IMG/VR virus record: IMGVR_UViG_3300003316_000274 | Span: 1 to 64,000 of that record | DNA: 64,000 nucleotides | Reading direction: 5' to 3' (one strand) | Source of the DNA: a virus | In this document: piece by piece, positions 5,314-42,121 of the stretch | Numbering within the stretch: position 1 is the stretch's first letter | Layout: every line of letters begins with the position of its first letter | Translations under genes and position numbers: made by a program | The notes under the pieces: generated by a model | Told to the model about the DNA's origin: nothing | The model's input: only the letters and a program-made list of their open reading frames with translations | Databases searched by the model: none

Positions 5314-5356
5314 GATGTCTCGGATTAGCCACTGCCAGAACTGTAGACAACCGTCA

Positions 5357-5896
5357 TCAGATGCCCTGCCCGGCCTCGATGGCGTGCAGGTGGACCGTGG
5401 CCCCTGCCAGCGGCGCCGGAGCGCCCAGGACATTGATGCCGAGGACCACGACTACCGCGCTGGTGCGCACGTTGACCGTGCACGAGGACGCGGACAGCGC
5501 GGTGACCCGGGCCTCCACCGCGTTGGCGTTCGTCGTCTCCAGCGCCTGCGCCACCTTCGGCACGGCAGAGAACGGCGGGGAGAACGTGAAGACGACGTCC
5601 CCGCTCCCGTTGGACACGCCGGAGGCGGCGAAGATCCGGCGGGCTGCGGTCGGGGCGACGACCCACCGGGTGCCATCGGACTGCACGCGCCGCTCCCGCC
5701 CGGCCGGAACGGTCAGCGTCGCGACGGCGACGCCGTCGACCAGGAACGGCGTCGCCCCTGTCGAGGACCACACCGCGGAGGCGGTGGACGTGTTCGTCAG
5801 GTCGTGGGTGCGGCCCGCGACGGTCGTCGGGTCGGGGAGCGATTCGGCGGCCGAATCCGATTCGAGGATCAGCGCGTTTGTGTCGTGCAAGGCCAC
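5357..5896 (-). CDS. tail fibre-associated protein (possible H-type-lectin-like C-terminus)
   Basis: ORF 5357..5896. GTG start 8 nt after GAGG. Lies in the tail module. The C-terminal segment VVFTFSPPFSAVPKV..CTVNV is lectin-like. Confidence 0.65.
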   Translation of the reverse strand: MALHDTNALILESDSAAESLPDPTTVAGRTHDLTNTSTASAVWSSTGATPFLVDGVAVATLTVPAGRERRVQSDGTRWVVAPTAARRIFAASGVSNGSGDVVFTFSPPFSAVPKVAQALETTNANAVEARVTALSASSCTVNVRTSAVVVVLGINVLGAPAPLAGATVHLHAIEAGQGI

Positions 5897-5982
5897 GGCC
5901 TAGACCTCATTCCTGGGCAGTCGTACGCCCCTCACGGAGAACCCGATGGAGCGTCGGCTGAGAGATATCGAATGGTTGTTAC

Positions 5983-7869: not shown

Positions 7870-7888
7870 CAGCGGTTCCTCTCGTCGA

Positions 7889-23927: not shown

Positions 23928-25589
23928 TCAGCCGACGGGGCAGGTCTGGACGACCTGGCCGCCTGTGGTGCCGGACGGGCAGACGGGGACGGTCACGAGG
24001 CGGACCGCACCGTCCGGCGCGCGTACGACGGTCGCGACGCACTCTTCGGCGAATGCAGCGGTGTAGTCGTTGGTCTGAAGGCTGGCGTGGTCGTAGACGA
24101 CGCCGAGGTTGATGTCGGCGCCGCGGCCGATCTGGACCTGGCCGGCCGGATAGATCAAGAACTGGATTTCTTCTGGCCACACTGTTGCCGGCGTGGTGCC
24201 GCCGATGACGTTGTTCGCGGGGTCGTTGTCGACGGGGAAGGGCACGTCGGTGATGCCGCGGGCCCACTGCACGCGGACGCCGAGGGACGAGTAGATCGCC
24301 TGGACGTCGGCCGTGGTGACCTCCTCGACGCTGACGCCGTTGCGGCGCGCGACGTCGGCGAGGAAGAGGTTGCGCGTCCACCAGGGGAAGACCACTTCGA
24401 GCGCGATGTTGTCGCACAGGGAGAACCGCTCGATGATGTCGGCGGCCTGGAGCGCGACGGCGGAGTAGACGGCGGACAGCGCGCCGAACGAGGCGGCGAT
24501 CGTGACCGGCGTCGCGGCTGCGGCGACCTGGTTGAGGAGGACCTGGCGGACGCGGATCTCCTGCGCCACCATCGTGAGCGACAGGTAGTGCGCGATCAGC
24601 TCGGGGAAGTGGCGCTGCGTCAGAAGGCCGGCGCGGACGCAGATGCCGACGGCGTCGCAGCGGACCTCGACCGGCTCATCACACGGGACGGTGAAGCACG
24701 GCTTCGGGGTTCCGGCGATGTCCGCGGCCTCGGTGTGCACGAACGTCATGTTGGCGACGTCGAGGACCGGAGTGGGGAAGAAGCGGAGGCCGCCGCGGCG
24801 GAGCTGGACTTCGGGGGCGTCCCACAGCATGTCCGGGCAGGAGATGCTGAGGAAGTCGTACATGGTCTCCGAGGGGGCGCACCAGCCGCCGGAAGCGACG
24901 AGGTCGCCCCCCTTGAGGCGGCTCTGCTTGGAGGCGTACAGGGTGACTGCGGAACCCTCACCCGGGCTTCCGAGGTCATCGACGACGAGCTCCTCGGGGA
25001 ACGGGTGGTGGTAGGACGCGATCAGGCCGGAACCGCCCCCCTGCGACTTGAGAGCGTTGGCGCGGGCGATCGCGCCGGGGACGAGGTCGCCGAGCGCCAT
25101 GGTCTCGCCGGCACGGTAGCCGGGGACGTCGACGGAGGCGGTGATCTCCGGCTTGAGGCGGGCCGGTCCGGGCTCGGGGCTGGTGATCTCCGGGAGGCGC
25201 TTGCGGACCGAGTTGAGGCGCACCAGAGGCTTCTGCGCGATCCGGGTGGACGCGGTGACGTCGTCGGTGACGTCGGTCTCCTCGACGACCGCGGTCTCGG
25301 CCTGGGCGTCGGCCTCGTCGGCGCGGGTCTCTTCCCCGAGGATCTGGGCGGAGAGCTGGGCGATCTCGGCGTTGGCGGCCTCGGCGGCGGCCTGGCGGTT
25401 CGCATGCTCGCCGCGCAGGGTCTCGATGCCTGCGGCGAGGGCGCGCAGGGCGGGGAGGTCTTCGGTGGTGAGGTCGGGGCTCTCCCGCATCGCCTGGAAG
25501 GCGGCGGTGGCGTCGGCGATGTGCTGGTCGAGTTCGTCGGAGGACAGCGCCGTGACGTCTTCGGGAAGGGTGTAGCTCTCGTGGGCCAT
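23928..25589 (-). CDS. major capsid protein with N-terminal coiled-coil (scaffold/delta-like) extension
   Basis: ORF 23928..25589. ATG start 6 nt after AGGAGA. Has an acidic helical N-terminus followed by the GGWCAPSE motif typical of actinophage HK97-fold capsid proteins. Confidence 0.9.
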   Translation of the reverse strand: MAHESYTLPEDVTALSSDELDQHIADATAAFQAMRESPDLTTEDLPALRALAAGIETLRGEHANRQAAAEAANAEIAQLSAQILGEETRADEADAQAETAVVEETDVTDDVTASTRIAQKPLVRLNSVRKRLPEITSPEPGPARLKPEITASVDVPGYRAGETMALGDLVPGAIARANALKSQGGGSGLIASYHHPFPEELVVDDLGSPGEGSAVTLYASKQSRLKGGDLVASGGWCAPSETMYDFLSISCPDMLWDAPEVQLRRGGLRFFPTPVLDVANMTFVHTEAADIAGTPKPCFTVPCDEPVEVRCDAVGICVRAGLLTQRHFPELIAHYLSLTMVAQEIRVRQVLLNQVAAAATPVTIAASFGALSAVYSAVALQAADIIERFSLCDNIALEVVFPWWTRNLFLADVARRNGVSVEEVTTADVQAIYSSLGVRVQWARGITDVPFPVDNDPANNVIGGTTPATVWPEEIQFLIYPAGQVQIGRGADINLGVVYDHASLQTNDYTAAFAEECVATVVRAPDGAVRLVTVPVCPSGTTGGQVVQTCPVG

Positions 25590-26321: not shown

Positions 26322-29300
26322 TCAGGCTCCTCCTGTTGTCTGCGCCGGCAGCACGGAGGCGGCCAGCGCGTCGATCTCTGCTCTCAAGGCCGCCGCTTCC
26401 CCGGCCCGTTCTGCCTCCCTGCGCAGCAGCGCGTCCGCGAGGCCGTCCAGCAGGGCCGGATCGGAGAAGGCAGTCGTCAGGGCAGCTGTGATGTCCTCGA
26501 CGTCAAACGTGACCATCCCTTCGGCTACGGGCTCGGGCTCCGGCTGGAGGATCTGCTCGGCCGTGAAAGCCGCGCTCGCGGCGAGCGCCATGTTGGACCG
26601 CTCGACCACGGACGCGACGAGCGGCGAGGAGTGCCCCGGCACCGGAACAGACAGGACCGCCCTCAGCTGCCACTGGCCCCCCGGGCCCTGGGTCATGTGG
26701 TAGCTGGGCTGGCAAGTCAGCATGATGCGCCGGTCGATCTCGGAAACCCAGGGGGTCGCCGCACCGGAGAACCACATGCCGCCCTCATTCATGCCGACGG
26801 TGACAATGCCGGCCACAGTGCGTGTGTCGTCGAGCTGGCAGGCCGCGGTCTCGCACTCGTAGCCGTCGCGGTGGTGCCCGACGTCCATGGTGTAGGCGCC
26901 GGCCCTAACCTCGGTGCCGTCGTCCAGGGCGTACTTCTGGCGCAGGAAGTGGCTGAGGTCGAGTCCCTTCGCGGCGATCTTCTCGATGGTGACCTTCGCC
27001 CCATACGAGGCGTGGGGGACGCCTGCCTGCGCGACCCAGCCGTAGATCCGGCCGGCCTTGTAGTGGACTCCGCCCGATCCCGGGGGGAGTTCCTCGGTGG
27101 TCGGCTCGCGGAACCACTCGGCGGGCATCGGTGGCAGGTCCTGCATGGCCCTCCACGCTGATGCCTCCAGGACGTCCATCTCGCTGTCGCCGTCGTCCTC
27201 GTCGGCCCAGGGGACGGTGGCGGGTGGGTCATCGGGGAACGTCTCGTTGATGCGCCCATACAGCGTCTCGACCTTGGCCCGCAGGGCGGGCACGTCGGCT
27301 TCCGGTACGTCTACGCCACCCCGCGCGCCCTGCAAGGCCGCCGCGACCGCGAACACGCCCTGCGGGAAGATGTGGAGCCCGCCATCGACCGGGCGGGCAA
27401 TACCCAGCTTGTACGCGCCGAGCGTCGCCGGGTCGGCTTCGTCGTCCCGCCACAAGAACGCATCCGCCAGCTTGTCGGCGTCGACCTCGCCGTCTTCTCC
27501 GGTAGCCCAGGCGAGGGTCTCGGACGCGGCGGCGGGGCCATCCCACTCGGCGTCCCGGACCTCGTGGATGGGCAGGTCGGTGTTCCCGGTGACCGAGGCG
27601 ACGAGGGAGCCCTCGGGCAGAGTGGCCGGGGCGGTGTAGCGGCGCCCCGAGCGCGCCACGTGCCCCTTGTCGACGGCAGTCTTGAGGTGCGCCCGGACAG
27701 TGAGGAGCGGAAGTCCCGTGGCCTCGGTGATGTCGCGGGAGGAAAGCACGTCAGGGCGTCCCCACACCACGTGCACGACGCGGCTGTAGTCATCGAGGGC
27801 GGCAGCGGCCAAGGCGAAGTCGTCCTCGGCCACGGCCCGCTCGGCGTCAGCGGGCTCCTCGTACGGATCGATGACGACACGTGCCCGCGAGTAGGCAGGC
27901 AGTGTCACGAGCGTGGCACCGCGGACCCGAGCCCGGGTCACCCGCATCAGGAACTCGCCGCTGCGCTGGACCTCCAGGACCTCGGCGTCGGCGCCAGGGT
28001 CGGGGTCGCCGGCCGCAGCGGTCAGGGAAGGCGCGAGGAGGACGGCGACGTCGCGGCTGACCCTGCCGTTGAGGTCGGTCACGAGGGTGACCTGACGCGT
28101 CCCGGAGGCGACGCTCAGCCCTGAGGCGGTCACCTGGGGGGCGGTGGACGCGGTCAGGGACCAGCCGCCGTCCGCGAGTCTCATCAGGGACGCCCGGTGC
28201 AGGTGCGCCGACGCCACGATCGCCGGTTCGACGTCGACGCCGGCATCGTCTGGAAGCGGCGCCGTGGAGATGAGCTCCAGGTCGACGGCGTCCAGGTCGA
28301 CAGACACGCCGACGGGGGCGTCCTGGTCGAGGAGCGTGGCCACTTCCCAGCCGGCGTCCTGCGTCATGTAGAAGACGCCGGACCCAGTGATCCGGTCGCC
28401 GTCGCGGCCGAGTTGTGTGGCGGCGCCGGCGAGTTCGCCGCCGTCGTGGCCGTAGCCCATTGCGTCGCAGTAGTGGATCGGCCAGGAGTCGCCCTCCCAG
28501 TACAGGGAGCCGGGGGCGAATACCCGGTCATCGCCGGTCTGTTCGTTCTCGAACGCCAAGGCGGTGTCGCCGGGCGTCGACCACGTCCGCACCGGGAAGA
28601 CCGGTGCCGCCGTCATCTCCCTGTCGTTCGGTTCGTGCATCGGCTCCTCCTGTTCTTCGGGGGCGAGTTCGCCGCCCACGTACCAGCGGTGGATCTCATC
28701 GGTTCCGTCGAGCACGATGCCGTACGCGGGGCCCGGGTCGACCTCGGCGACGGTGCCGGTCGTGGAGCCTTCGTCGTGCGGTTTCCCGGTCACCACAACC
28801 CGGTCGCCCGGCGTGAACGCACGCCCGGCTGCCGTGATGCCGGGAGTGAGCGGGATGTCGGTCGCATCGCCTGCGAACACGACTCGGATCCGGTCGAACA
28901 CGACGGGTCCCAGGCGCTCCGTCATCGGCTGCATGAGAGCTGTGTCGGTCCGGTAGCCAGCCGTGACGTGCGCTACCCACGGCGAGTGCTGCACGGCCGG
29001 TTCGGGCAGCCCTTCGGTGCCGAGGGCGGCGTCGACAGCGATGGTGTGCGCCGTGTCGAGCCCGGACCCGGGCGTGTCCCGGTCGTCGCTGGTCGCCCAC
29101 ACCCATGCGGGATCGTCGCTGTCCGGGTTCCAGTGGTTGATGCCGAACAGGCGTGCCTGGACGGGCCCGTCGATCGCTGCGGCGCGGGTCTGCACGGCTG
29201 CGGTCAGGGCGGCGCGCTGCTGCTCGCTCCACTCCGACGCGTCGCCGGTCAGGTAGTACAGCGTGCAGTGGAGTTCGGTCGCGTCGTGGCCGCCGTCGAC

Positions 29301-30185
29301 GGCCAGGCGCTCGGCATCGGCGGCCGTGGGGATGAGGGCGATCATGCCGCCCCGGTTCGGGTTGTCTGTGGCAGCGGCGAGGTCGGTCATGGACGCCGTC
29401 CTTTCCGAAGGCGCGGGTTCTACCCGCATGACGCAGCGGCAGTTCACTGTGAGGTCCGGCGGGGCCGAGGGGTCTCCGGGGTACTGCATCAGCGCGCCGC
29501 CGACGGTGAACGCCTCGTCGAGGAGCCGTAGCTGGCCGTTGACGGCCCTGTGGGTGTCGCGCACGCGTGCGTCACCTCTGGTCCGCCACTGCTTCACGAG
29601 TGGCCGGTCCGGGCCGGTCAGTGCTTCTGCCGCTGCTTGTACGCCGGCGTTCCAGGCGCGGGTGGCTTCCGTGGCTGCGATGCGTTCCGCGCGGGCCTCG
29701 CCGAGTTGTTCGCCGTCCGCGCGGAGAAATGCCCGCAGGCGTGCCCGTAGCGCCTGAGTGTCCTCGCCTGCGGCGATGCCGTCGCTGAGTTCGCGGGCGG
29801 CGCCCTGGGCGATCCGGTCGCCGATCGCCCTGACGAGCGCTTCGGTGGCGGTTGCGTAGTTGGTCAGGGAGGCTGGCAGGGTCTGGTCGTCGTACCGGTC
29901 GGAGAGGCTGTCGAGGCCTTCCGGTGTGCGGCCGTCTCCTGCCGTGTCGGCCGTGGAGGACACGGCGGGCTGGGCGGCGGAGCGGAAGAGACGCCGCATG
30001 ATGGCGGATACGTGCTCGCGCCACAGCTGTGCGATACGGCGCACCGACCATGCTGCTGCGGTGATCTCGTCCGCGCGGCCGAGTTCCTGGACCGCCTGGC
30101 GGGCGACGGCCCGCAGCGCGGCCTTCACCTCGCGCAGGACCGCGTCCTCCGCTGCCGCGAGGGCTTCTTCTTCAGCGGTGGCCAA
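26322..30185 (-). CDS. head morphogenesis polyprotein: MuF-like domain, 2H-phosphoesterase-like domain, prohead serine protease-like domain, wHTH-like segment, and a long C-terminal region
   Basis: ORF 26322..30224. A TTG at 30185 lies 6 nt after GGAGG. MuF motif: RDTHRAVNG..PGDP..NCRC. Two HxT motifs: LHCTLYY and AHVTAGY. Protease-like segments: GYGHDGGELAG...VGVSVD...ATLVTLPAYSRARV. Confidence 0.9.
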   Translation of the reverse strand: MATAEEEALAAAEDAVLREVKAALRAVARQAVQELGRADEITAAAWSVRRIAQLWREHVSAIMRRLFRSAAQPAVSSTADTAGDGRTPEGLDSLSDRYDDQTLPASLTNYATATEALVRAIGDRIAQGAARELSDGIAAGEDTQALRARLRAFLRADGEQLGEARAERIAATEATRAWNAGVQAAAEALTGPDRPLVKQWRTRGDARVRDTHRAVNGQLRLLDEAFTVGGALMQYPGDPSAPPDLTVNCRCVMRVEPAPSERTASMTDLAAATDNPNRGGMIALIPTAADAERLAVDGGHDATELHCTLYYLTGDASEWSEQQRAALTAAVQTRAAAIDGPVQARLFGINHWNPDSDDPAWVWATSDDRDTPGSGLDTAHTIAVDAALGTEGLPEPAVQHSPWVAHVTAGYRTDTALMQPMTERLGPVVFDRIRVVFAGDATDIPLTPGITAAGRAFTPGDRVVVTGKPHDEGSTTGTVAEVDPGPAYGIVLDGTDEIHRWYVGGELAPEEQEEPMHEPNDREMTAAPVFPVRTWSTPGDTALAFENEQTGDDRVFAPGSLYWEGDSWPIHYCDAMGYGHDGGELAGAATQLGRDGDRITGSGVFYMTQDAGWEVATLLDQDAPVGVSVDLDAVDLELISTAPLPDDAGVDVEPAIVASAHLHRASLMRLADGGWSLTASTAPQVTASGLSVASGTRQVTLVTDLNGRVSRDVAVLLAPSLTAAAGDPDPGADAEVLEVQRSGEFLMRVTRARVRGATLVTLPAYSRARVVIDPYEEPADAERAVAEDDFALAAAALDDYSRVVHVVWGRPDVLSSRDITEATGLPLLTVRAHLKTAVDKGHVARSGRRYTAPATLPEGSLVASVTGNTDLPIHEVRDAEWDGPAAASETLAWATGEDGEVDADKLADAFLWRDDEADPATLGAYKLGIARPVDGGLHIFPQGVFAVAAALQGARGGVDVPEADVPALRAKVETLYGRINETFPDDPPATVPWADEDDGDSEMDVLEASAWRAMQDLPPMPAEWFREPTTEELPPGSGGVHYKAGRIYGWVAQAGVPHASYGAKVTIEKIAAKGLDLSHFLRQKYALDDGTEVRAGAYTMDVGHHRDGYECETAACQLDDTRTVAGIVTVGMNEGGMWFSGAATPWVSEIDRRIMLTCQPSYHMTQGPGGQWQLRAVLSVPVPGHSSPLVASVVERSNMALAASAAFTAEQILQPEPEPVAEGMVTFDVEDITAALTTAFSDPALLDGLADALLRREAERAGEAAALRAEIDALAASVLPAQTTGGA

Positions 30186-30360
30186 TGCGAACCTCCGGTA
30201 GATCCGGGTCGGCACACACGTCACACATGGCCCATGAGCCGATCGTCTGGACGCCGTGCTCCGTGACCAGCAGCAGCGGCGCGGCCAGGGCGGTGAAGGC
30301 CTTGCACGGCGTGCACCACGCCTCGTGTCGCAGGCCGTACGCCAGGAATCCGCCCTTCAC
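30172..30360 (-). CDS. small zinc-ribbon-like protein
   Basis: The GTG at 30360 overlaps the portal stop (GTGA). Sequence is VKGGFLAYGLRHEAWCTPC...MCDVC. Good GC3. It is the tail of ORF 30172..30537. Confidence 0.55.
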   Translation of the reverse strand: MKGGFLAYGLRHEAWCTPCKAFTALAAPLLLVTEHGVQTIGSWAMCDVCADPDLPEVRIGHR

Positions 30361-32060
30361 CGGCCCGCTCCCGCCTGACGAACCAGGGTGACAACGTTGT
30401 CGTATGTGTGAGGAGTCTGCGTGGTCAGCAGAGCGATGACGTACCGGTCTAGGGCGGCGGTCAGCGCGCCGGGAGCGGCGCCTGACCGGACGGCTACCTC
30501 GGGCACACCGCTCCACGCGCCTTCGAGGAGTCCCCACGCCTCGACCTCCCGCTCGTTCACCCGGTACACCCGGTAGCGCTGCGCGGCGGGAACGGACTGG
30601 GCCGCTTCACGCTCGGCGCGCGGGCACACGGGCCGGTTCAGCATCCGCTCTCCCACGCGGGTCAGCGCGCTGTTCACGGCGACGTCGAGCGCGGCGCACA
30701 GCGCTGCGTCCGGACCGGGCAGCGCGGACGCGGAAGGCTCGGCGGGCATCGCTTCGGTCTCGGCAACCGGGAGTGCCGGACGGCCCGCCGCAGGCTCCAC
30801 GGGCGCCGTGCCGGCGCCGGGGGCGTCGGCTTCGGTGAATCCCGTCTCCCGTCGGGCCGCTTGGCCGCTGATCAGCCCTGCCTGATACGCCTCCAAGGCG
30901 ATCGCCGCCTTGTTCGTGGCGGTGCGCAGGCTCGCAGTGTCGTACCAAACGAGAACGTCGTCGGCGTCCGGGACTCTACGGGCGTCCAGCGCGGGCCGCA
31001 GCCACGCGGTAGTGAGGGCGTGGCACACCGTCGCGAGTTTCGGCTCGACCGCGGTCTGGATCGCGTCGCCCTTGATCGACCAGACGTTCCAGTGCGATGC
31101 GTCGGAGAGGCCGGTGATGATTTCCTTCGGCACGTCCATGCCGATCGCGATCCGCTCGCGCAGCTCTCCCCTCAGCTGCTGGGCCATCGTGTCGAACTCG
31201 GAGTCGAGGGTGAGGTGGCGCACCTCGCCGATCACATCGGCGGGGACCTCCAGAACAATGGGGACCGTGGCGGCTGCGCTGCCGGGCTCACGGATCGCGG
31301 TCGACGCGACCTCCATGAACACGTCCAGGAGGTCGTCCTCGGCGTCCCCGACGGTGCCCTGCTGGGTGGGGAATCTTGTTCCTTTGGGGACGAGGAGGAT
31401 GCCGCGGCCGGTGATGCGGGAGCGGGCGATCGCCTGGATCGCCAGGGACAGCAGGTTCAGCTCCTCGATCAGGCCGAGGGACGACTTGATCGCACTGTCC
31501 GCGTCGCGGTGCATGAACGGGTCCGGCTCCCACACACGGAACGCGACCGGGTTGGTGTCGTCGGGGTCGTCCTCGTCGTAGGCGGGGATCACCACCTCGA
31601 CGCCGTCCTTCTGGACCGTCAGGCGACCGCGCTCGGGGCGGACTTCCTGCGTCGACAGGACGCGCCATTCGTAGCTCGACGGCTGCCCGGTCACCGCATC
31701 GATCACGGGAGACACCAGCGTCCACGCCTCGCCGGTCACGGTCAGGTGGGGGCCGAATGCCCCGAGGAAGTCGGGCTGCCCCGATACGCCGCCGGCGATC
31801 TGCGCGACGATCTCGGATGCGGGGTGGTCATCCGGGAGCGGCGCGATGCTGTTGTCGGGCCCGGGGCGGCCGGCGAAAAGAGTTGCCTGGGACATGGCGC
31901 TCCCGATCCACCGGGCGACGAAACGAATCTCCGGCACGGTCCGGTACGCGTTGATCGCAGCAGGCTGCCAGCTCCCGTCGGCCGGGATCGCCCGGGACGC
32001 GGCGAGCTGCGCGGTGTAGCGCTGCGCGGCGGCGGTCAAGACCCTGCGAGGCTGGGCCAA
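30357..32060 (-). CDS. portal protein
   Basis: ORF 30357..32060. TTG start 6 nt after GGAGGAGAG. Size, position and composition are typical of siphovirus portals. Confidence 0.85.
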   Translation of the reverse strand: MAQPRRVLTAAAQRYTAQLAASRAIPADGSWQPAAINAYRTVPEIRFVARWIGSAMSQATLFAGRPGPDNSIAPLPDDHPASEIVAQIAGGVSGQPDFLGAFGPHLTVTGEAWTLVSPVIDAVTGQPSSYEWRVLSTQEVRPERGRLTVQKDGVEVVIPAYDEDDPDDTNPVAFRVWEPDPFMHRDADSAIKSSLGLIEELNLLSLAIQAIARSRITGRGILLVPKGTRFPTQQGTVGDAEDDLLDVFMEVASTAIREPGSAAATVPIVLEVPADVIGEVRHLTLDSEFDTMAQQLRGELRERIAIGMDVPKEIITGLSDASHWNVWSIKGDAIQTAVEPKLATVCHALTTAWLRPALDARRVPDADDVLVWYDTASLRTATNKAAIALEAYQAGLISGQAARRETGFTEADAPGAGTAPVEPAAGRPALPVAETEAMPAEPSASALPGPDAALCAALDVAVNSALTRVGERMLNRPVCPRAEREAAQSVPAAQRYRVYRVNEREVEAWGLLEGAWSGVPEVAVRSGAAPGALTAALDRYVIALLTTQTPHTYDNVVTLVRQAGAGR

Positions 32061-32114: not shown

Positions 32115-35100
32115 CTAGAGCGAGGCTCCGGCAATGGCGAGCCGGGACAGTACCCGGTCGGCGGTGACACGCGCATCACCAACCTCCGTGATGTTGAACG
32201 TCACGTTGTTAGTGGTCGCTTCGGCTTTGCTGCTGCCGCGGGATTCCTGGGCTGCCAGGCGGTCGAGCCCGGTCCTCTGCATGAGTTCCACCGCGCGGGA
32301 GCGGCGGGTCAGCGGAATGATCACCTCTGGTCCGGCCTCGCCGACGAGGGCCGGGGTGGGGCCGAGCACCACGCCGCCGTCGGCGAAGGGAAGCAGGGCA
32401 CGCACCGACGAGGGCAGGCCCGCCTTGATGTTCGAGATGATCCGGGAACCGATGTTTCCGACTGCAGCAACGATCCGGGAAGGCAACCCGCGGAACAGGC
32501 TCACAATGCTGTTGATCAGGCCGTTCACGGCTGAGGTGGCCGAGGACACGGCCGACTGGAACACTCCCGCGATCCGCGATCCCAGGGACGACAGGGCTGA
32601 TGCGGCCCTGCCGGGGAGCTGTGAGAAGAACCTGACCACGGAGGACACGAGATCAGACGTTCTGTTCTGGGCCGCCGACGATGTCCTGGCGAACACGGAC
32701 GTCACCGCTGTCACCAGGGCGGACAGAGCCGCCGATGCCCGGCTCGGGAGCGACTGGAAGAACCCGACGACACGGTTGATGAAGCCCGTGACGGTGGCGG
32801 TGACCGATGCGGCCGTTTGTGTGAACCATTGCCCGACCGCTGTCGCCAGAGAAGAGAGGGCAGCGGAGAGCCGCCCCGGCAGCGCGGCGAAGAAGGCGAC
32901 CGTGTTGTTCAGGAATGCCGTCACGCCTGCGGTGATCGATGCCCACAGGCTGGAGAAGAACGCCGACAGCGACGCCGCCAGGCCCACTACGGCGTTGAGG
33001 ATCCGCTGCGGCAGCTCAGTGAAGATGAAGATCAATGCGGCCAGTTCGGTGAGCAGTGCGATGGCGACCTGGGAGACGGCGAACACGAACAGATCCACCA
33101 GCAGGCCGGGCAGCGCCTGGAGGAAGGCGAGGATCCGTCCCGGCAGGGCGGCGAAGAAGTCCGTCACCGCGGTGAACGCCGATGCCACGCCGGCGGCGAT
33201 CGAGGTGCCCAGCGAGGAGAAGAACGAGGACACCGTCCCGGCCAGCGAGGAAAGGCCCGAGGTCACCGCGTCGGGGATCCCGGCGAAGAAGTCCCCCAGC
33301 GAGGACGCGAAGCCCGACGCCGACGAGGCCGCTGAGGAGAACGCGGACGACACTGCGGCCGGGAGGTCCGTGATGGAGGTGACCGTGGCCGTGACGGTGT
33401 CGATGACGCCGGTCATCACGTCTGTGAATGCCTGGAGAGCGGGCACGACGCCCCGGACGGCGACCAGGGACAGCAGCCCGGCGGCAAGTTCCAGGACGGG
33501 CCCGGTGATCTGGGCCACCAGTACGAGCAGCGGTGCCAGCGCCTCCACCAGGCCGACGAGTGAGGGAAGCAGTGGAAGCGTTGCGGTCGCGAGTGCCGTG
33601 AACGCTTCGATCAGTGGCGGCAGGACGGGTAGCAGGGCGTCTGTCAGGGCCTGGATGACCGGTGTGAGGGCGGTCGCGAGCTGGGCGACGGTGACTGCCA
33701 TCGCGGCGAAGAGGGGCGTGGTCTGGCTGACGAGGGAGGCCAGGGCTTGGCCGATCCCTGTGACCAGCGGAGTCAGGGCCTGGACGAGCGTGACGAACGC
33801 TGCTGTCAGCGGGGGCAGTACGGGGGCGAGGGCGCCGACGAGGGACTGGATGACCGGGGTCAGGGCGTCCGCTGTGGCTGAGAGGGCCGGCGCGAGGATG
33901 GAGGCGACGGATGCGGCGAGTTCACCCACCAGCGGCAGGAGCGGTGAGAGGCCCTGGAGGAGTGCGGCGACCGCTGCGCCGACGGGGCCGAGGGCTGGCC
34001 CGAGCGCGGCCAGTCCGGTTGCCAGGGCCTGGCCGACCGTGGTCAGTGACGGCGCGATGGCAGCGAGAGCAGGCCCGAGCCCATTGATGACGTTGGTGAT
34101 GGCAGGGCCGAGGGCCTGGAACAGGGGTGCCAGGGACGGAGCGATCGCGCCGATCTGGGTGACGAGCGCGGCGAGGATCGGTCCGAGCTGGGCGGCCACC
34201 GTGGAAATGGTGGAGAAGATGCTGGTCAGGGCAGTCTGTCCTTGTGCGGACTCGACGAACTCGCGGATCTGACCCGTGATCTGCTGGAGGTTGTTCAGGA
34301 ATCCGCCGCCGACCGCGGTCCCCGCCTGGAACACGGAGACGATGATGGTGCCGACGTTGCTGAGGATGGAGCCGAGCTGAGCGAACACGGTCAGCGCCTG
34401 CTGCACCCATGCGACGGCCTGGCCGCCCTCGGAGATGCGGGTGAGGAACGCGGCGACCCGGTCGCCGATGGCGGTGATCGTGGATTCCAGCTTTGCGCCG
34501 AACGCGTCGGAGATGACGGCGCCGAGCCGGAGGAAGCCTGCTGTCAGGCCGTTGGACGTCTGGGCCAGGCCCCGGACGGCTGATGTCGATCCCTGGAGGA
34601 TCGACTGGACGTTGCTGACGCCCTCGGCTGACTGGACGTATTGCAGGACGCCGCGAGCAGCCAGGCCCCACTGGGCGGCGATCGCTGCGAGGCCGGTCTT
34701 CAGGGGGCCCTGGAGAGCCTCGGCTGTCCGGGTGATCTGTCCTTCGATCTCGCCGAAGAACGCATCCTGGACGGAGTTCCGCAGGTCTTCGAAGGCGGGC
34801 TTGAGTGCCCGTACTTCCCGGGCCGCTGCCACAGCCGCCGGGGAGAGATTCTCCAGGGACTCCTCGAACTTCGCGGCGTCCTTGGTGAGGGCGGCGCTGA
34901 AGGCGTCGCCCACGCCCTGGAGGGCGAATTTCAGGGTGTTGATCGCGGCGACGGAGCCGAGGATGGCCGCCGGGCCGGCGGCGAGGATGCCGACGGCGGG
35001 GGCCAGGGCTGCGGTGAATGCGCCGATGGATGAGGCGGCGCTGGCTGCCGCGATGCCCACGGCGCCGAAAGACAGGAGGCTCTGGAGTCCTCTGGCGGCT

Positions 35101-36299
35101 GAGGCTGCGGCTGGTCCGAGGGCGGCCAGGGAGCGCCGGAAGCGGTCGTTGTCGGCTTCGACGGGCACCCGGACAGGGCGGGGCTCAGGGACGACGCGCA
35201 GGGAGATCTCTTCGCCCGACACCGCGGCCTGGGCGCGGGCGACGAAGTTCGTCATGTCCGGCGCGACCGTGATGGCGAGGTCGAGATCGCCGAGGGCGTG
35301 CGCTTCCCGTTCGAGCTGGCGGGTGAAGCGGCGCAGGTCCGGTACGACGGACACCGCGAGGTCGATGTCTCCGAGGGCGCGGGCCTCGCGCGCGAGCTGG
35401 CGGGTGAAGCGGCGCAGGTCGGGTACGACGGTCACCGCGAGGTCGATACCGGTGAGGGAGCGGAGTGCTGCGCGCAGCTCGATGCCGAGACGGCGGGCGT
35501 CCAGGGCGGTGGCGACCTGGACGGTGGCGTCCGCCTGGCGGGCTGCGCGGGAGAGGGCGGCCTGGAGCCGGGCCGCCTGGACCTCCACGCCCACGGGGAT
35601 AGTGGCCTGCACCGCGCGTACGGCGCGCGTCAGGGCCGTCTGAAGGCGCGAGGTGTCCGGCTGCACCTCGACGCTGATCCGTGCCCGGACGGTGCGGACC
35701 GCCCGGTCGAGGGCGGCCTGGAGACGGGAGGCGTCCGGCTCCACGATGGCCCGCACCTGTGCCCGGACGGAGCGCACGGCGCGGTCGAGGGCAGCCTGGA
35801 GGCCGGAGGCGTCCGGCTGCACCGTGGCGCGGACCTGTGCCCGGACGGAGCGCACGGCGCGGTCGAGGGCAGCCTGGAGGCCGGAGGCGTCCGGCTGCAC
35901 CGTGGCGCGGACCTCGGCGCTCGCTGTGCGCACAGCTTGGTTCAGTGCGGCCTGGAGGCGGGAGGCGTCGATGGCGACCGGTACGGTCACCGGCGCTGTC
36001 GCGGCGCGTGACGCGGCCCGGATCTGCGCGTCGAGGCGGGCGGTGTTCAGCTCGATGTCGAGCCGGATCGAAGTGGCTGCTGAGCGGGTGGCTGTACGGA
36101 TCTTGCTGTCCAGGCTGCGCACCGCGCGGTCGATGCCCTGGGTCAGGTTCCGTTCGAGGGTGCGCCCGATGGTCTGGGTGCCTCGGTCGAGGGCGCGGCG
36201 GATGCGGTCGGCGGCAGTACGGGAGTCTGCCGCAATCCGTGTCGTGTCGAGGACAACCTGGACCTCAGCCTGGCCGAGGTCTTCTGCGGGCGTTCCCAT
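32115..36299 (-). CDS. tape measure protein (1394 aa)
   Basis: ORF 32115..36299. N-terminal coiled-coil tandem repeats, a long A/L/G/S/V-rich hydrophobic repeat core, and a C-terminal ALVGEAGPEVIIPL motif typical of tape measure proteins. Confidence 0.9.
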   Translation of the reverse strand: MGTPAEDLGQAEVQVVLDTTRIAADSRTAADRIRRALDRGTQTIGRTLERNLTQGIDRAVRSLDSKIRTATRSAATSIRLDIELNTARLDAQIRAASRAATAPVTVPVAIDASRLQAALNQAVRTASAEVRATVQPDASGLQAALDRAVRSVRAQVRATVQPDASGLQAALDRAVRSVRAQVRAIVEPDASRLQAALDRAVRTVRARISVEVQPDTSRLQTALTRAVRAVQATIPVGVEVQAARLQAALSRAARQADATVQVATALDARRLGIELRAALRSLTGIDLAVTVVPDLRRFTRQLAREARALGDIDLAVSVVPDLRRFTRQLEREAHALGDLDLAITVAPDMTNFVARAQAAVSGEEISLRVVPEPRPVRVPVEADNDRFRRSLAALGPAAASAARGLQSLLSFGAVGIAAASAASSIGAFTAALAPAVGILAAGPAAILGSVAAINTLKFALQGVGDAFSAALTKDAAKFEESLENLSPAAVAAAREVRALKPAFEDLRNSVQDAFFGEIEGQITRTAEALQGPLKTGLAAIAAQWGLAARGVLQYVQSAEGVSNVQSILQGSTSAVRGLAQTSNGLTAGFLRLGAVISDAFGAKLESTITAIGDRVAAFLTRISEGGQAVAWVQQALTVFAQLGSILSNVGTIIVSVFQAGTAVGGGFLNNLQQITGQIREFVESAQGQTALTSIFSTISTVAAQLGPILAALVTQIGAIAPSLAPLFQALGPAITNVINGLGPALAAIAPSLTTVGQALATGLAALGPALGPVGAAVAALLQGLSPLLPLVGELAASVASILAPALSATADALTPVIQSLVGALAPVLPPLTAAFVTLVQALTPLVTGIGQALASLVSQTTPLFAAMAVTVAQLATALTPVIQALTDALLPVLPPLIEAFTALATATLPLLPSLVGLVEALAPLLVLVAQITGPVLELAAGLLSLVAVRGVVPALQAFTDVMTGVIDTVTATVTSITDLPAAVSSAFSSAASSASGFASSLGDFFAGIPDAVTSGLSSLAGTVSSFFSSLGTSIAAGVASAFTAVTDFFAALPGRILAFLQALPGLLVDLFVFAVSQVAIALLTELAALIFIFTELPQRILNAVVGLAASLSAFFSSLWASITAGVTAFLNNTVAFFAALPGRLSAALSSLATAVGQWFTQTAASVTATVTGFINRVVGFFQSLPSRASAALSALVTAVTSVFARTSSAAQNRTSDLVSSVVRFFSQLPGRAASALSSLGSRIAGVFQSAVSSATSAVNGLINSIVSLFRGLPSRIVAAVGNIGSRIISNIKAGLPSSVRALLPFADGGVVLGPTPALVGEAGPEVIIPLTRRSRAVELMQRTGLDRLAAQESRGSSKAEATTNNVTFNITEVGDARVTADRVLSRLAIAGASL
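35678..35911 (-). repeat. 78-bp (26-aa) in-frame tandem repeats in the tape measure gene; two copies are identical
   Basis: Segments 35756-35833 and 35834-35911 are identical by eye (peptide RATVQPDASGLQAALDRAVRSVRAQV). Diverged copies flank them. A second 81-bp family (DLAVxVVPDLRRFTRQL) lies at about 35270-35470. Confidence 0.8.
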
Positions 36300-37878: not shown

Positions 37879-40527
37879 TCACTTCCCGATAGGACGGCTG
37901 TAGCGGGCCGCTGCCTTCGACGGCCTTCGGGCATCCTGTCCCCGCTTCACCGGGGCGTGGACGGCGGCCTCATCCAGGAGTTCAGCGGCGAACGCCATTG
38001 CCACCGCATCACCGCGGTCCGGGGAGCGGCCGAGGCGGGTGACCAGGTCGTCCTTCGTCTCGATGTGGATCTTCGGCGGGATACCGGTGGTGATGTCCCA
38101 GGTCGGCGCGGTCAGGTCGCTGATCAGGAGGTCATCGGGCGGGAGCATCACCTCGGCGCCGAAGGCGGGGTCGAGGAGCTCGCGGAGGCGGTAGTACGCG
38201 GCGCTGCGCAGGTTGACGTACCCGTATTCGTGGTCGCGAGTCCTGGCCTTGGTCTTCGCTGCGCCCGTGTACGGCAGGACGGGGGCACGTAGCTCGCGCA
38301 GGCGGTCAACGACGCCGCCGCCCACGCCGGCGGAGTCGACGACGGGGATGACGCGGTCCTTCTTCGGGCCGGTGGCGCCCTGCACGCGGGCGGTGGTCTG
38401 CATGGTGTCCTGCCGGTCGTGGATGTCGAGGCGGGTGATGCAGGCGCCGTGACGGTGGGCGAGGACGGTGGAGTCGCCACCGGCGCGGGCGACGTCGACA
38501 CCGATGACGCGACGCCCTTGGAGAGCCGGTCGTCCGGCGTCGTTCCATTCGTGCCAGCGCGCGACGGCAGCCTCGACCCAGGCCAGTGGGATAACGGCGT
38601 CCTCGTCGCTCGCGTGGAACTCGCCGCGGACGCGGTTGGCGTACATGGCGGAGTCGGCACCCCACTGACGCTTGCGCTGCTCCGCCCATTCCCGGCTGAT
38701 CCGGCCGGCGGCGATCGCCTCTTCCAGGGTGACGTGCCGTACCCACCAGTCCTCCAGGCCTGGGGCGCGCTTGTGGATTTCGTAGAACCGGCCGGCTGGC
38801 TGGCCCGGGGTGGAGATGGCGAGGGCGAATGCTTCGGGAAGTCCCTCGGTGCGGCCTCCGGAGAACGCGCCTTCGATCGCGTCCCAAGTGGCGTCGGGGA
38901 CGACCTTGGCCTCGTCGATCAGGTACAGCAGGGAGTCGGCGTGCGCGCCCTCGATGAGCTCGGCCTTGTTGGAGGCGACCGGAGAGGCGGCGCCGTGGAC
39001 GAGCTTCAGGTTCAACGCGAGGAGCTCGCGGATGTCGGAGAACGGCGCGCGGCCGAGAACGTCCCAGCGGATACGCCGCGACCACTTATGGATCTCTGGC
39101 CAGAGGTAGACCGTGAGATGTCTCCAGGCGGACGCGGTGGTGATGACCTTCCAGTCCCACCCCGCGGCTTCGCGTGTAGTCGCGAACCACAGGGTGGTGA
39201 TCGCTGCCAGACCGCTGTTGTGCGTCGGCACCATGGACTCGCCGGCCAGGAACAGGTGTGACGGCGAGTCGACCTCGATGCACTGAGTGGGCTGGTCCTC
39301 CACCTTCCGGATGTCGGTGATGGTCCGTTGGGTGTGCCGGGACGCCTGGGCCCCGGCAGGCTGCCAGTCGTACCGTGGCAGACGGTATGGGTTGAAATCG
39401 AAGCGGGCGGCGATACGCCACCGGCGACCGACTACCCGTCCGTTGATCTTGCTGTCACTCTCCCGGACGCGGACGACCAGGCCGAGCGAGCGCAGCAGGT
39501 CGGCCACGTCGTCGGCCAGTGGCTTGCAGGTGAGGGTGATCTCGTCACAGCCTCCTGCCTGCCGGTATCCGTCGGAGTCCCACAGACCACGCACCAGCTC
39601 CCGTCGCTGCTCCACTGACGCTCGTAGGTAGCTCATGGGGATGTGCTTGTTGCCGAGCACGCCGAGTGCTCGCAGGCGGCCGTTTAGCGACTCTCGTCCC
39701 GGGCCGCCGCCCCGCTGTACGGGCATCGTGGACACGGTGACGCTCAGGGCGTCCGGGTTGCGGCTGTCGCCTCTCGGAGCGCCGTGGTGGTACTCGGCGC
39801 CAGCGATGCGCTCTTGCAGGTACGGCCAGTCGCTGCTGTGCACGACGATCTCGGAGGATCGGGTGCGGCCGTCCCCGAGCCAGTAGCCGAAGAGGTACGG
39901 GTCTACCGGCAAGTCTGCGGCGGGAAGGTTGAGCGGGCGCGCGGTCGGGATGCGCCACCGGGGCTGGCCGCCTGCTGTCCGCAGGTGCTTGGCCATGTGG
40001 GCGGTGGTTACGCGCTTGGTCGCGTCCCAGTGGTCGCGCCAGTCCTTGACCGTGATGGGCCGGCGGTTCGGGCGAGGGGTCTTCGGCCGGTTGTAGACGT
40101 CGACGGCGTTCCACTCGTGCTCGCCGTGGGTCGTGATGACGGTCCCGTCGGCGAACTCCACCACGTAGGTGTCGGCGTTCCAGACGGGCGACTTGGCGAC
40201 GACCCGGCATCGCTTGCCGTGCTCGTCAAACAGCTCGTCACCAGGGCGCAGTGCGCCGATTGTTGACCATCCGGTCGGGGTCGGAATCCTCACATTGCAT
40301 TGTAGAGCCTTGCCTAGGCCGTGAGGGCCGCGTACGGCCACCCGCTTCTTCGTCGGCAGGGCGTTTAGGACGTCGTTCTGGTAGGGGGTCAGGCCGCCTG
40401 TAGGGCCCCAGTCGATGACGTCGCGTGCCCAGGCGACCGGGTCGTACCTCCACGAGGTGCGCTGGCTGTCCAGGGCGAAGGACCGGCCGGCGTGCGCCCA
40501 GGGGTCGATGTCAGCTGGGTTCGGCAT
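37879..40527 (-). CDS. terL: terminase large subunit, interrupted by an intein in the Walker A P-loop
   Basis: Start MPNPADIDPW at 40527 within ORF 37879..41073. The upstream 182 aa overlap terS in an R/P/S-rich shadow frame. Exteins join as VAVRGPHGLGK|SGLAAITTLWF. The C-terminal part carries a nuclease-like region. Confidence 0.9.
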   Translation of the reverse strand: MPNPADIDPWAHAGRSFALDSQRTSWRYDPVAWARDVIDWGPTGGLTPYQNDVLNALPTKKRVAVRGPHGLGKALQCNVRIPTPTGWSTIGALRPGDELFDEHGKRCRVVAKSPVWNADTYVVEFADGTVITTHGEHEWNAVDVYNRPKTPRPNRRPITVKDWRDHWDATKRVTTAHMAKHLRTAGGQPRWRIPTARPLNLPAADLPVDPYLFGYWLGDGRTRSSEIVVHSSDWPYLQERIAGAEYHHGAPRGDSRNPDALSVTVSTMPVQRGGGPGRESLNGRLRALGVLGNKHIPMSYLRASVEQRRELVRGLWDSDGYRQAGGCDEITLTCKPLADDVADLLRSLGLVVRVRESDSKINGRVVGRRWRIAARFDFNPYRLPRYDWQPAGAQASRHTQRTITDIRKVEDQPTQCIEVDSPSHLFLAGESMVPTHNSGLAAITTLWFATTREAAGWDWKVITTASAWRHLTVYLWPEIHKWSRRIRWDVLGRAPFSDIRELLALNLKLVHGAASPVASNKAELIEGAHADSLLYLIDEAKVVPDATWDAIEGAFSGGRTEGLPEAFALAISTPGQPAGRFYEIHKRAPGLEDWWVRHVTLEEAIAAGRISREWAEQRKRQWGADSAMYANRVRGEFHASDEDAVIPLAWVEAAVARWHEWNDAGRPALQGRRVIGVDVARAGGDSTVLAHRHGACITRLDIHDRQDTMQTTARVQGATGPKKDRVIPVVDSAGVGGGVVDRLRELRAPVLPYTGAAKTKARTRDHEYGYVNLRSAAYYRLRELLDPAFGAEVMLPPDDLLISDLTAPTWDITTGIPPKIHIETKDDLVTRLGRSPDRGDAVAMAFAAELLDEAAVHAPVKRGQDARRPSKAAARYSRPIGK
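39217..40308 (-). mobile_element. 364-aa intein with LAGLIDADG homing endonuclease; class-3 (WCT)-like signature
   Basis: Starts ALQCNVRIPTPTGWSTIGAL and ends VPTHN|S. Block B is TTHGEHEW. LAGLIDADG motifs are LFGYWLGDGRT and LVRGLWDSDGY. Block F is PTQCIEVDSPSHLFLAG. The first codons are GC3-poor (CTA CAA TGC AAT). Confidence 0.8.
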
Positions 40528-41188
40528 GCGGGGCTCCGGTGACGGCGGCGATCTGCTCGGGGACGATCCGGGCGAGCCAGCCCGGCCATTCGCGCCGGAC
40601 GAGGGCGGCGTCCTGGTCGCCGAGGAGACCGGTGAGGCGGTCGAGGAGGCTGTCGGTGGAGCGGCGGATGACGTCCGCGAGCATGGCGCCCTGCTGTTCG
40701 GCGAGGTGGACCAGACGCTCGCTGATGCCGGCGTCGAGCGCGGTCTTGGAGACGTGGACGAGGTGTCGGCGCTCGCGGTGGTACAGGTCGAGCCAGACGC
40801 TGGGGCGGGCCGTCGCCTTGCGGTCGGTGCCGGGTGACAGCGTCGCTGTCTTGTCGGTTTCTTCGGTGATGCCCCAGGTGAGGTCGGTGTCGTCGAGCTC
40901 GCGGATTTTCTGCGCGAGCCAGGCCACGTGTCCGGCGGTGCGGTGGACCTCTTCGAGGAGCGCGGCGGCCGGGTCGATGTCGCGGGGCAGGCCGTAGGTG
41001 ATGACGGCCTGGCGGGCGTGTTCCTCGGCGAGTCGGGTGGCGGCTTTGCGGCGTACCTGGCTCGCTGCTCCACCGTGCATGCGGCATGTGGCGCCTCCGG
41101 GGATCGCCGTGTTCTTGCACTGTTCGCCGCTGCGTTTCGACTTCGCGGTGCAGCGGCGTCGGTTGGAGTCCATGGGGTCCATGATCAT
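40511..41188 (-). CDS. terS: terminase small subunit (N-terminal zinc-ribbon type)
   Basis: ORF 40511..41188. The segment RRCTAKSKRSGEQCKNTAIPGGATCRMHGGA is typical of actinophage TerS. Overlaps terL by 17 nt. Confidence 0.75.
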   Translation of the reverse strand: MIMDPMDSNRRRCTAKSKRSGEQCKNTAIPGGATCRMHGGAASQVRRKAATRLAEEHARQAVITYGLPRDIDPAAALLEEVHRTAGHVAWLAQKIRELDDTDLTWGITEETDKTATLSPGTDRKATARPSVWLDLYHRERRHLVHVSKTALDAGISERLVHLAEQQGAMLADVIRRSTDSLLDRLTGLLGDQDAALVRREWPGWLARIVPEQIAAVTGAPHAEPS

Positions 41189-41321: not shown

Positions 41322-42062
41322 TCAGGGGAGATCGGCGATGAGGACCGTGGCGTTGTCAGCGCGCGTGGTGGCGTGGTCGATGGCGGCCTGGACGAAGTCG
41401 TGGGCGGCGTGTGCGGGGGTACCGGTGAGGTAGTCGGCGAGGTTGCGGCAGGAATCCTCCAGGGGCTCGTACGCGCCGTCGGACGCGAGGAGGAGTCGGT
41501 GAGGGCCGTTGTCGAGGGCGAGGGTGGTGGACTCGATGGCGGGGTGCCCGTACTGGGCCTTGACCTCGTCGTCGGTCTCGTAGGCGCCGAGGCAGGAGGT
41601 GAGGAGGTTGCGGTTGCCGCCGGGGCTGGTGGGGTAGCTCGTGCCGGGCGGGTAGACGCGGCGGAGGTTGTGGTCCTGGGTGAGGCGCCGGAGGGTGGTG
41701 CCGGTGAAGAGGTAGGCGCGGGAGTCGCCGCACCAGGCGACGGTGAGGTTCCGGCCGTTGATGACGGCGACGACTGCGGCGGCCTGCGGGAGATCGGGGC
41801 CGTACGGGCCGCGCCGGGCAGGTTCGGCGGCGTACTGGTCGTAGACAGCGCGCAGTCCAGTTTCGGCGTCGGCATGTCGGGCGGCGGCCTGCGCGAGGCG
41901 CACGGCGCCGGTGCGGGCCCAGTCGCGGACTTCGTCGTTGGAGCCGATGCCGTCGAAGAGGACGTAGGCGCGGGTGACACCGTCGGGGTTGGTGCGGGTG
42001 GCGGTGGCGTCGCACTGATGAGTGCGGTCACCGATGAGCTGGGCGGTCGCGTGAGTACGCAT
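41322..42062 (-). CDS. PP2C-family Ser/Thr protein phosphatase
   Basis: Start MRTHATAQL within ORF 41322..42116. Motifs: FDGIGS, WCGDSRAYLF, LTQDHN, LLASDGAYE, ADNATVLIADL. Confidence 0.85.
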   Translation of the reverse strand: MRTHATAQLIGDRTHQCDATATRTNPDGVTRAYVLFDGIGSNDEVRDWARTGAVRLAQAAARHADAETGLRAVYDQYAAEPARRGPYGPDLPQAAAVVAVINGRNLTVAWCGDSRAYLFTGTTLRRLTQDHNLRRVYPPGTSYPTSPGGNRNLLTSCLGAYETDDEVKAQYGHPAIESTTLALDNGPHRLLLASDGAYEPLEDSCRNLADYLTGTPAHAAHDFVQAAIDHATTRADNATVLIADLP

Positions 42063-42121
42063 GGAGCCCCCTGAGGTTCTGATCTTGTGGTGGCGGTGGG
42101 GTGCCGGGCGAGGCACCGTGG

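Follow-up and report, generated by a model that had tools for sequence, protein, structure and literature searches.

Locus and gene assignment

We analyzed a window of 64,000 nucleotides (nt), positions 1 to 64,000 of the IMG/VR virus record IMGVR_UViG_3300003316_000274, and focused on a long minus-strand gene whose product is predicted to join a MuF domain, a 2H (LigT-like) phosphoesterase domain, and a candidate prohead protease in one polypeptide. The open reading frame (ORF) runs without interruption from 26322 to 30224 and encodes 1300 amino acids (aa) from its first GTG in the ORF list; all residue numbers given here refer to this 1300-aa frame. The likely start is the TTG at 30185, which would yield a 1287-aa product. 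This codon was preferred because a GGAGG lies 6 nt upstream of it, because the 1287-aa product is 100% identical to the database entry P0005, and because it aligns with the starts of the homologs in phages YDN12 and Xkcd426. The whole gene (26322..30185, minus strand) sits between a portal gene directly upstream (30357..32060, minus strand; product 48% identical to gp11, the portal of YDN12, at E 3e-161) and a major capsid protein gene downstream (23928..25589, minus strand; product 51% identical to the major capsid hexamer protein of YDN12), an order shared with YDN12 and Xkcd426. Collinear proteins with 44-50% identity over aa 53-1253 were recovered by tblastn in all cluster BG phages, including YDN12, TP1604, Xkcd426, and Geonosis, and full-length alignment to YDN12 gp12 and Xkcd426 gp12 gave 50-52% identity over the aligned length. 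The annotation given to these homologs is "capsid maturation protease and MuF-like fusion protein". More than 300 further homologs are found in Streptomyces genomes and metagenomes, and apart from P0005 nothing is more than ~60% identical to the window protein. On the basis of these comparisons, the product is identified by sequence as a head-morphogenesis polyprotein, and the phage or prophage that encodes it as a relative of the Streptomyces phages of cluster BG (Woodruffvirus). No relative at the nucleotide level was found among sequenced phages.

A domain map was assembled from Pfam and PHROG scans, a 109-sequence family alignment, hidden Markov models cut from that alignment, and two AlphaFold 2 (AF2) models. 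In this map MuF and 2H are followed in order by a small insert that is probably SH3-like, the S78-like protease candidate, a winged-helix segment, the accessory domain, and a conserved C-terminal beta domain with a helical tail at its end. We place high confidence in this architecture and in the identity of the 2H domain. As the best explanation of the whole, and at a probability slightly short of even, we propose that the polyprotein delivers the 2H enzyme into a new host by way of the virion. The motifs quoted in the initial annotation were all located in the ORF translation where that annotation had placed them. When PDB sequences were searched with the whole-family profile, nothing above noise came back, the best match being a ribosomal protein at E 0.087.

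The MuF domain extends over aa 21-275 (29400..30164, minus strand), with a Pfam core at aa 144-266 that matches PF04233 at 1.7e-12 and scores 48.5 bits against a cut-off of 29.6, in agreement with the initial assignment; the RDTHR...NCRC motif sits within this match. The same region is matched by PHROG 2468 and 3517 ("head morphogenesis"), and the domain was present in all 37 relatives scanned. In one relative, P0031, an intein-like insertion lies inside MuF. According to literature cited in PMC5512222, MuF is associated with the portal in phages SPP1 and Mu.

The 2H phosphoesterase domain

The segment that follows MuF, aa 291-460 (28845..29354, minus strand), was assigned to the 2H superfamily from an AF2 model, Foldseek and PHROG searches, and its conserved histidines. 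Motif 1 is H319-C-T321, within LHCTLYY (29262-29270), and motif 2 is H419-V-T421, within VAHVTAGY (28962-28970); together with MIALIP, these stretches span aa 294-424 (28953-29345). When aa 280-465 were modeled with 70 relatives, the mean predicted local distance difference test score (pLDDT) was 93.7 and the predicted template modeling (TM) score was 0.88, and the HxT motifs fell on its two central strands (41-47 and 140-145). In a Foldseek comparison with the PDB, ranks 1-44 were exclusively 2H-superfamily enzymes (E 9e-6 to 0.65, TM 0.45-0.60). By sequence, PHROG 2659 ("RNA ligase") matched the 2H segment at 1.2e-26, and PF13563 stayed below its gathering cut-off in the window protein (17.4 bits versus 27, E 0.0048) while matching 14 of 37 relatives at E <= 0.1 (best 1.4e-7). 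The Pfam score is below threshold because the sequence models are too distant, and it is the structural test that decides. We conclude that the predicted fold is robust and that the window protein carries both canonical HxT motifs.

Conservation of the motifs was followed with a profile of the segment, which found the 2H domain in 119 of 125 database sequences (115 full-length relatives, three stand-alone proteins, and one fragment). Motif 1 reads HxT in 118 of the 119 carriers. The motif-2 histidine is invariant wherever its position is aligned, and the third residue of that motif is T (66 sequences), C (44), or A (8). Both motifs are kept in the homologs from Arthrobacter, Microbacterium, Gordonia, and Mycobacterium phages. 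The HxT pair, which the initial annotation had offered as the mark of a 2H domain between MuF and the protease region, is thus not a chance occurrence, and the structure prediction agrees with that proposal. The HxC (44/118) and HxA (8/118) forms of motif 2, found in a large subclade, make for an unusual 2H active site.

The conservation of the histidines and of motif 1 is the pattern expected of an active enzyme and points to retained catalysis. A catalytically dead fold, which would serve as a spacer or as a module binding nucleotides or nucleic acid, for example by holding the DNA end at the portal in the manner that the central domain of AKAP18 binds AMP, is very improbable. It would fit the loss of the motif-2 Thr in many relatives and the occurrence of AKAP18 among the structural matches, and SPP1 gp7, a MuF protein, is known to bind DNA. 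Against it, both histidines and the motif-1 Thr are near-invariant over deep divergence, and neither canonical HxT motif has been lost from the window protein.

The structural matches bear as well on what such an enzyme might act upon. They include archaeal and bacterial LigT and 2'-5' RNA ligase-like proteins, Usb1, AKAP18, and cyclic phosphodiesterase (CPDase). Also among them are Acb1 (7T27, E 1.3e-3), which cleaves cyclic oligonucleotides for evasion of the cyclic-oligonucleotide-based antiphage signaling system (CBASS) (PMC9117128), the phosphodiesterase (PDE) PDE-9 of Burkholderia phage BCSR5 (9Q2Y/9Q2G, E 1e-4), which cleaves 3'3'-cyclic GMP-AMP (cGAMP) and likewise serves CBASS evasion (10.1101/2025.08.21.671373), and the penguinpox cGAMP PDE. 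One reading of the domain is that, whether delivered or made in the cell, it heals or processes RNA ends carrying 2',3'-cyclic phosphates, such as those left on tRNAs by host anticodon nucleases or toxin RNases, or that it is a Usb1-like RNase, and that immune messengers are not its substrates. The best structural matches, to LigT-type 2'-5' RNA ligase/CPDase enzymes and Usb1, agree with this reading, annotators call the clade "RNA ligase", and an RNase role was one of two options considered by Iyer et al. in 2017 (PMC5512222). We nevertheless consider it distinctly unlikely. Fold similarity cannot separate substrates, since Acb1 and PDE-9 match at 1e-3 to 1e-4 as well. No RNA ligase, kinase-phosphatase (polynucleotide kinase), or Tpt1 partner was found among the 53 ORFs of the window at E <= 1e-4, and according to Iyer et al. 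these versions of 2H are not associated with RNA ligases (PMC5512222). As those authors argued, the lack of an RNA-repair partner weakly favors a role in signaling.

Distribution and modularity

The initial annotation had implied that insertion of a 2H domain at this place is rare, which the wider family contradicts. The domain occupies the same place in 115 of 121 full-length relatives, the window protein included, from Streptomyces phages and prophages; it is absent in six, and the published cluster BG phages are among its carriers. Of the 362 phage genomes in which the 2H clade occurs, 209 fall under Mycobacterium, 131 under Gordonia, 17 under Streptomyces, 4 under Rhodococcus, and 1 under Mycolicibacterium, and the usual annotation there is "RNA ligase" or "head maturation protease". 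The labels "RNA ligase" and "2'-5' RNA ligase" are given to the domain in hundreds of actinophages. The MuF-2H-protease arrangement is therefore not unusual, and the window provides one more example of it together with a cleaner domain map.

The domains of the head block are reshuffled across actinophages, with 2H joined to MuF, joined to domains of the protease module, or encoded by a gene of its own within that block. Arthrobacter and Microbacterium phages have the order MuF-2H-mid-Cterm, where mid and Cterm denote the two conserved domains of the protease module that are described below. In contig L011, the portal, MuF, ADP-ribosyltransferase, 2H, mid-opt-Cterm, and capsid are separate adjacent genes, and the MuF, ADP-ribosyltransferase, 2H, and protease genes (3708-8516) are four that overlap. 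Cluster C mycobacteriophages carry a stand-alone 183-aa copy of 2H five genes downstream of the portal gene. In Gordonia phage MelBins, the fusion partner of 2H is the conserved C-terminal domain of the protease module instead of MuF, and no mid domain was detected there. A gene for a histidine-triad (HIT) nucleotide-binding protein lies directly after the MuF-like gene of MelBins (L013 2156-2518), upstream of the 2H "RNA ligase" gene, and represents another nucleotide hydrolase within a head-assembly block. Between the MuF and protease genes of Microbacterium phages Megan and Terij, no stand-alone 2H gene was present. ADP-ribosyltransferase domains (PF03496) are inserted on either side of 2H in P0015, P0038, and P0059; these neighbors provide a cargo-like setting and belong to the domain type of the injected T4 effector Alt. 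A module of ~80 aa with the consensus YWLxGEGxxKIxWGTPGSFDRC also occurs in the slots flanking 2H, as read directly in P0008, P0089, and P0120, and about a dozen other relatives have an insert of similar size at that place.

These arrangements bear on whether the 2H enzyme would leave the producing cell at all. It might act only there or in the assembling head, for instance late in infection within the abundant unassembled polyprotein, or it might be degraded or expelled at maturation together with scaffold fragments, the fusion doing no more than providing for co-expression with late genes. The separate head-block genes of L011 and the cluster C mycobacteriophages, which have no evident capsid-targeting fusion, are in keeping with such a role, as is the near-universal presence of 2H in the relatives. 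Internal segments of protease-scaffold polyproteins are, moreover, commonly destroyed at maturation, as in HK97, lambda, and P2. On the other side, 2H is covalently attached directly after the portal-associated MuF in Streptomyces, Arthrobacter, and Microbacterium lineages, and Alt-type ADP-ribosyltransferase domains fill the same slots. We judge confinement to the producing cell to be quite unlikely and continue to prefer delivery by the virion.

The mid domain as a protease candidate

The conserved mid domain (aa 538-795; 27840..28613, minus strand) contains H593 (28446-28448) and S641 (28302-28304) as candidate catalytic residues, and its aa ~661-740 form a family-specific insertion. Both residues are invariant in a 37-sequence set; in the alignment of 109 sequences S641 is again invariant, and H593 is conserved at >=90%. 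When the mid profile was compared by hhalign with an S78 profile built from HK97 gp4 and 136 representatives, the P value was 0.0085 over 193 columns, versus 0.019-0.2 for control segments, and at this marginal P the alignment placed HK97 H65 exactly on H593 and S114 exactly on S641. A narrow profile from 120 close relatives of HK97 gp4 was uninformative for both the mid and the C-terminal domains, and Pfam S78 (PF04586) gave no match in the window protein (E <= 1), in 37 relatives (E <= 0.1), or in four phage homologs (E <= 1). In Microbacterium phage Megan, whose "capsid maturation protease" is a stand-alone protein, the mid domain makes up the N-terminal half of it. The results are consistent with the mid domain being a probable HK97-type (S78-like) prohead serine protease, with moderate support, and the region first proposed as protease-like (aa 545-785) is the best candidate for such an enzyme in the polyprotein.

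Within the otherwise variable insertion of the mid domain, the sequence LTAAAGDPD (aa 733-741; 28002-28028) is kept in 91 of 109 relatives and might mark a site of processing or serve in an interaction. A recurring T-A-A-A / A-S-A linker motif was also considered as a cleavage site and was rejected, the pattern being too unspecific in an Ala-rich protein.

The C-terminal domain and the remaining segments

The C-terminal beta-rich domain (aa 1020-1222; 26559..27167, minus strand) is the best-conserved part of the polyprotein, with 75-84% column identity and an AF2 pLDDT of ~90-96. Its invariant residues are H1071, H1117, D1120, C1124, C1129, S1174, H1176, and H1198, and the stretch RIYGWVAQAGVPH is located at aa 1059-1071. 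The initial annotation saw a second protease-like motif in this region. Foldseek found no PDB neighbor with E <= 0.001, and comparison with the S78 profile was not significant (P = 0.054) and in the wrong register. Searches of BFVD returned homologs named "capsid maturation protease" or "RNA ligase", followed by weak matches of low TM to entries labeled prohead protease, and PHROG 18402 ("head maturation protease") matched at 5.6e-9. A second protease is thus neither supported nor excluded by these data and must be called unproven. The possibility that the mid and C-terminal domains are duplicates of each other was examined by hhalign, which detected no relationship between them.

In every actinophage "capsid maturation protease" examined, stand-alone or fused, the mid domain is followed by the C-terminal domain in the same order, the pair being seen in Megan gp19, Terij gp20, Hendrix gp55, Acadian gp11, and Tank gp18. 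The gap between them is a hot spot for insertion, holding 745 aa in Hendrix gp55 and, in the window protein, both the winged helix and the accessory domain. The C-terminal domain may be a metal-binding or catalytic domain, and its fold may be a new one that capsid maturation in actinophages requires.

Four smaller segments complete the polyprotein. The insert between the 2H and mid domains (aa 461-537; 28614..28844, minus strand) is lineage-specific by the family alignment, with residues aligned across its positions in ~10% of relatives, and probably forms a small SH3-like beta-barrel and an acidic linker. Inserts of 68-83 aa are found at the same junction in P0007, P0008, P0009, P0048, P0064, P0087, and P0103, and that of P0008, when read directly, is clearly homologous to the window insert. 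A DUF1918 match to the insert is weak (E 0.027).

The winged helix-turn-helix segment (aa 800-878; 27591..27827, minus strand) was recognized mostly through its relatives. The initial annotation had described a MarR-like stretch here, beginning ITEATGLPLL (aa 810-866). A winged helix is supported at the level of the family, in which AbiEi_4 matches 24 of 37 relatives (best 2.5e-5) and HTH_IclR (1.2e-6), HTH_20, and MarR_2 also match, whereas in the window protein itself the segment gave only sub-threshold scores (SelB_WH 0.12, PHROG MarR 0.043). The accessory alpha/beta domain that follows (aa 881-1018; 27171..27584, minus strand) is present in ~55% of relatives (occupancy 0.5-0.6) and was modeled with a pLDDT of ~97; it had no significant PDB neighbor by Foldseek and no Pfam match. 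In four relatives (P0041, P0050, P0053, and P0122) the accessory domain precedes rather than follows the winged helix. NCBIfam and PHROG scans of the single unexplained segments returned only the multi-domain PHROGs 859 and 21470, together with PHROG 18402.

The variable C-terminal tail (aa 1223-1300; 26325..26558, minus strand) shows low conservation and was modeled by AF2 as long helices (model residues 327-347 and 363-412). Other prohead proteases carry targeting tails and scaffolds at such a position, and by inference the tail would be a scaffold-like or capsid-interior targeting segment.

Neighboring genes

Between the portal and polyprotein genes lies a small minus-strand ORF of ~62 aa (30172-30360). 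The start codon, a GTG, shares bases with the TGA of the portal gene (GTGA) and is preceded at 6 nt by GGGAG, and the stop codon overlaps the region in which the polyprotein gene starts. The product has two CxxC pairs (WCTPC and MCDVC) and is zinc-ribbon-like in appearance. In YDN12 and Xkcd426, which lack this ORF, the fusion gene directly overlaps the portal gene.

Upstream of the portal gene is a repeat-rich ORF of 1394 aa (32115-36299, minus strand), whose translation shows repeats such as QPDASGLQAALDRAVRSVRAQVRATV. Its position matches that of the annotated tape measure gene of cluster BG phages, and this order of genes is unusual for a siphovirus. Baculo_PEP_C and Apolipoprotein Pfam matches among the window ORFs, of a kind that repeat-rich proteins typically give, probably derive from it. 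Further upstream, a 1064-aa ORF (37879-41073, minus strand) contains a LAGLIDADG homing-endonuclease domain at aa 478-554 (PF14528, 4e-9; PF05204, 1e-4), which suggests that this large protein, encoded upstream of the head genes, carries an intein; the host protein is possibly the terminase. A PP2C-type protein phosphatase is encoded at 41322-42116 on the minus strand (PF00481, 1.3e-10), and NERD, Phd/YefM antitoxin, and GIY-YIG domains are also present among the ORFs of the window. A search for tRNA genes found none.

Proposed function of the polyprotein

Taken through the infection cycle, the proposed delivery would begin in the procapsid, where MuF and the C-terminal helical tail would bring the polyprotein to the portal. 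The internal S78-like protease (H593/S641) would cleave the linkers during maturation, and the freed 2H enzyme would be retained in the head at low copy number until infection, when it would exit along with the DNA. Once in the new host, it would hydrolyze phosphodiester or 2',3'-cyclic-phosphate substrates ahead of any phage gene expression. Immune messengers made of cyclic or 2'-5'-linked oligonucleotides would be its likeliest substrates, as for Acb1 and the phage PDE-9, with RNA ends as the main alternative. For packaging and ejection of the 2H enzyme taken as a step, we see an even chance. The choice of immune signals as the substrate is more tentative, leaning toward the unlikely. The most specific form of the idea, a virion-packaged PDE that destroys cyclic-oligonucleotide or 2'-5'-linked messengers of CBASS, type III clustered regularly interspaced short palindromic repeats (CRISPR), or similar systems before phage transcription, is rather unlikely.

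Several observations weigh against this proposal. A search of the literature for virion proteomics of the fusion proteins of this lineage, or for biochemistry of MuF-linked 2H domains, found nothing, and packaging, cleavage, and ejection of the fragment are best called plausible. The near-universal occurrence of the 2H domain (115/121) and its age, which spans five host genera, suggest a housekeeping part of the head more than the fast-evolving cargo of an arms race. Its top structural neighbors are LigT-type RNA-end enzymes and not Acb1, and in the study of Doherty et al. 2025 (10.1101/2025.08.21.671373) none of 18 immune messengers was a substrate for the viral 2H PDEs of two structural groups. 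The motif-2 Thr is replaced by Cys or Ala in 52 of 118 relatives, which indicates that the active site is non-canonical in part of the family. In L011 and the cluster C mycobacteriophages, 2H is a separate gene without obvious capsid targeting. Finally, the protease assignment on which release would depend rests on a marginal P, and Pfam S78 gives no match.

If the proposal is correct, a ready-made PDE would enter the cell and bypass the window of time in which nucleotide-signaling defenses fire, and the Acb1 paradigm would extend from expressed proteins to structural cargo. It would be the first experimentally accessible injected activity of the Acb1 kind, fixed in nearly all of a large actinophage lineage and freed from a self-processing polyprotein. 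The cultured relatives that grow on S. griseus (YDN12, TP1604, Xkcd426, and Geonosis) make the idea directly testable.

Comparison with known systems

Both the fusion and the concept have been published as computational predictions, and 2H domains are routinely annotated in actinophages. Fusions of 2H with MuF and with portal proteins were described by Iyer, Burroughs, Anand, de Souza, and Aravind in 2017 (PMC5512222) and by Iyer et al. in 2022 (PMC9503650). In the former they were proposed to be RNases or to degrade 2'-5' oligoadenylate and cyclic nucleotide defense signals, and in the latter such fusions were taken to suggest packaging in the head and injection against oligonucleotide immune signaling. 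The injected anti-signaling role that the initial annotation put forward is best regarded as a re-derivation of this hypothesis, plausible but not new. The polyvalent and packaged effectors of these authors follow the same principle as the window protein, with a MuF anchor and an enzymatic domain encoded in the head gene block, and carry the same functional proposal. In architecture the window product resembles them, combining MuF and an enzymatic conflict domain in one polypeptide encoded among late head genes. The two papers are computational surveys, and an internal 2H followed by a protease module, as in the window lineage, is not described in them.

Acb1 (T4 gp57B; FBB1 Acb1, 7T27) and PDE-9 (9Q2Y/9Q2G) share with the window domain the 2H fold and two catalytic histidines, at a target-normalized TM of 0.57-0.59 and 13-16% sequence identity. 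They differ in being small stand-alone proteins whose presence in the virion is not reported (PMC9117128, 10.1101/2025.08.21.671373), whereas the window domain is closer to LigT-type enzymes than to Acb1 or PDE-9 and forms part of a structural polyprotein. Among the 75 phage 2H PDEs of Doherty et al. 2025, thirteen are multidomain, some with protease domains (10.1101/2025.08.21.671373).

MuF-protease and MuF-VIP2 fusions are known from Microbacterium phages (PMC7302621). The MuF-ADP-ribosyltransferase fusions of Microbacterium phages Percival and Goodman likewise tether an enzyme to MuF and are predicted virion components, with T4 Alt as the injected prototype. Their cargo is different, and the effector is C-terminal, in contrast to the 2H domain of the window protein, which is embedded upstream of the protease.

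In the profile comparison, over 193 columns and at a P of only 0.0085, the catalytic residues of HK97 gp4 (Peptidase_S78) were placed on H593 and S641 of the window protein, and like HK97 gp4 the S78-like domain is encoded between the portal and capsid genes. It differs from HK97 gp4 in its ~80-aa insertion, in always being paired with a second conserved domain, and in having no Pfam match.

The fusion proteins of cluster BG share the domain order of the window protein, including the 2H, winged helix, accessory, and C-terminal domains, and their genes are arranged in the same order, namely tape measure, portal, fusion gene, small gene, and capsid. Compared with them, the window has an additional SH3-like insert of ~77 aa after 2H and an additional small zinc-ribbon-like ORF between the portal gene and the polyprotein gene, and its motif 2 reads HVT where that of Xkcd426 reads HVA.

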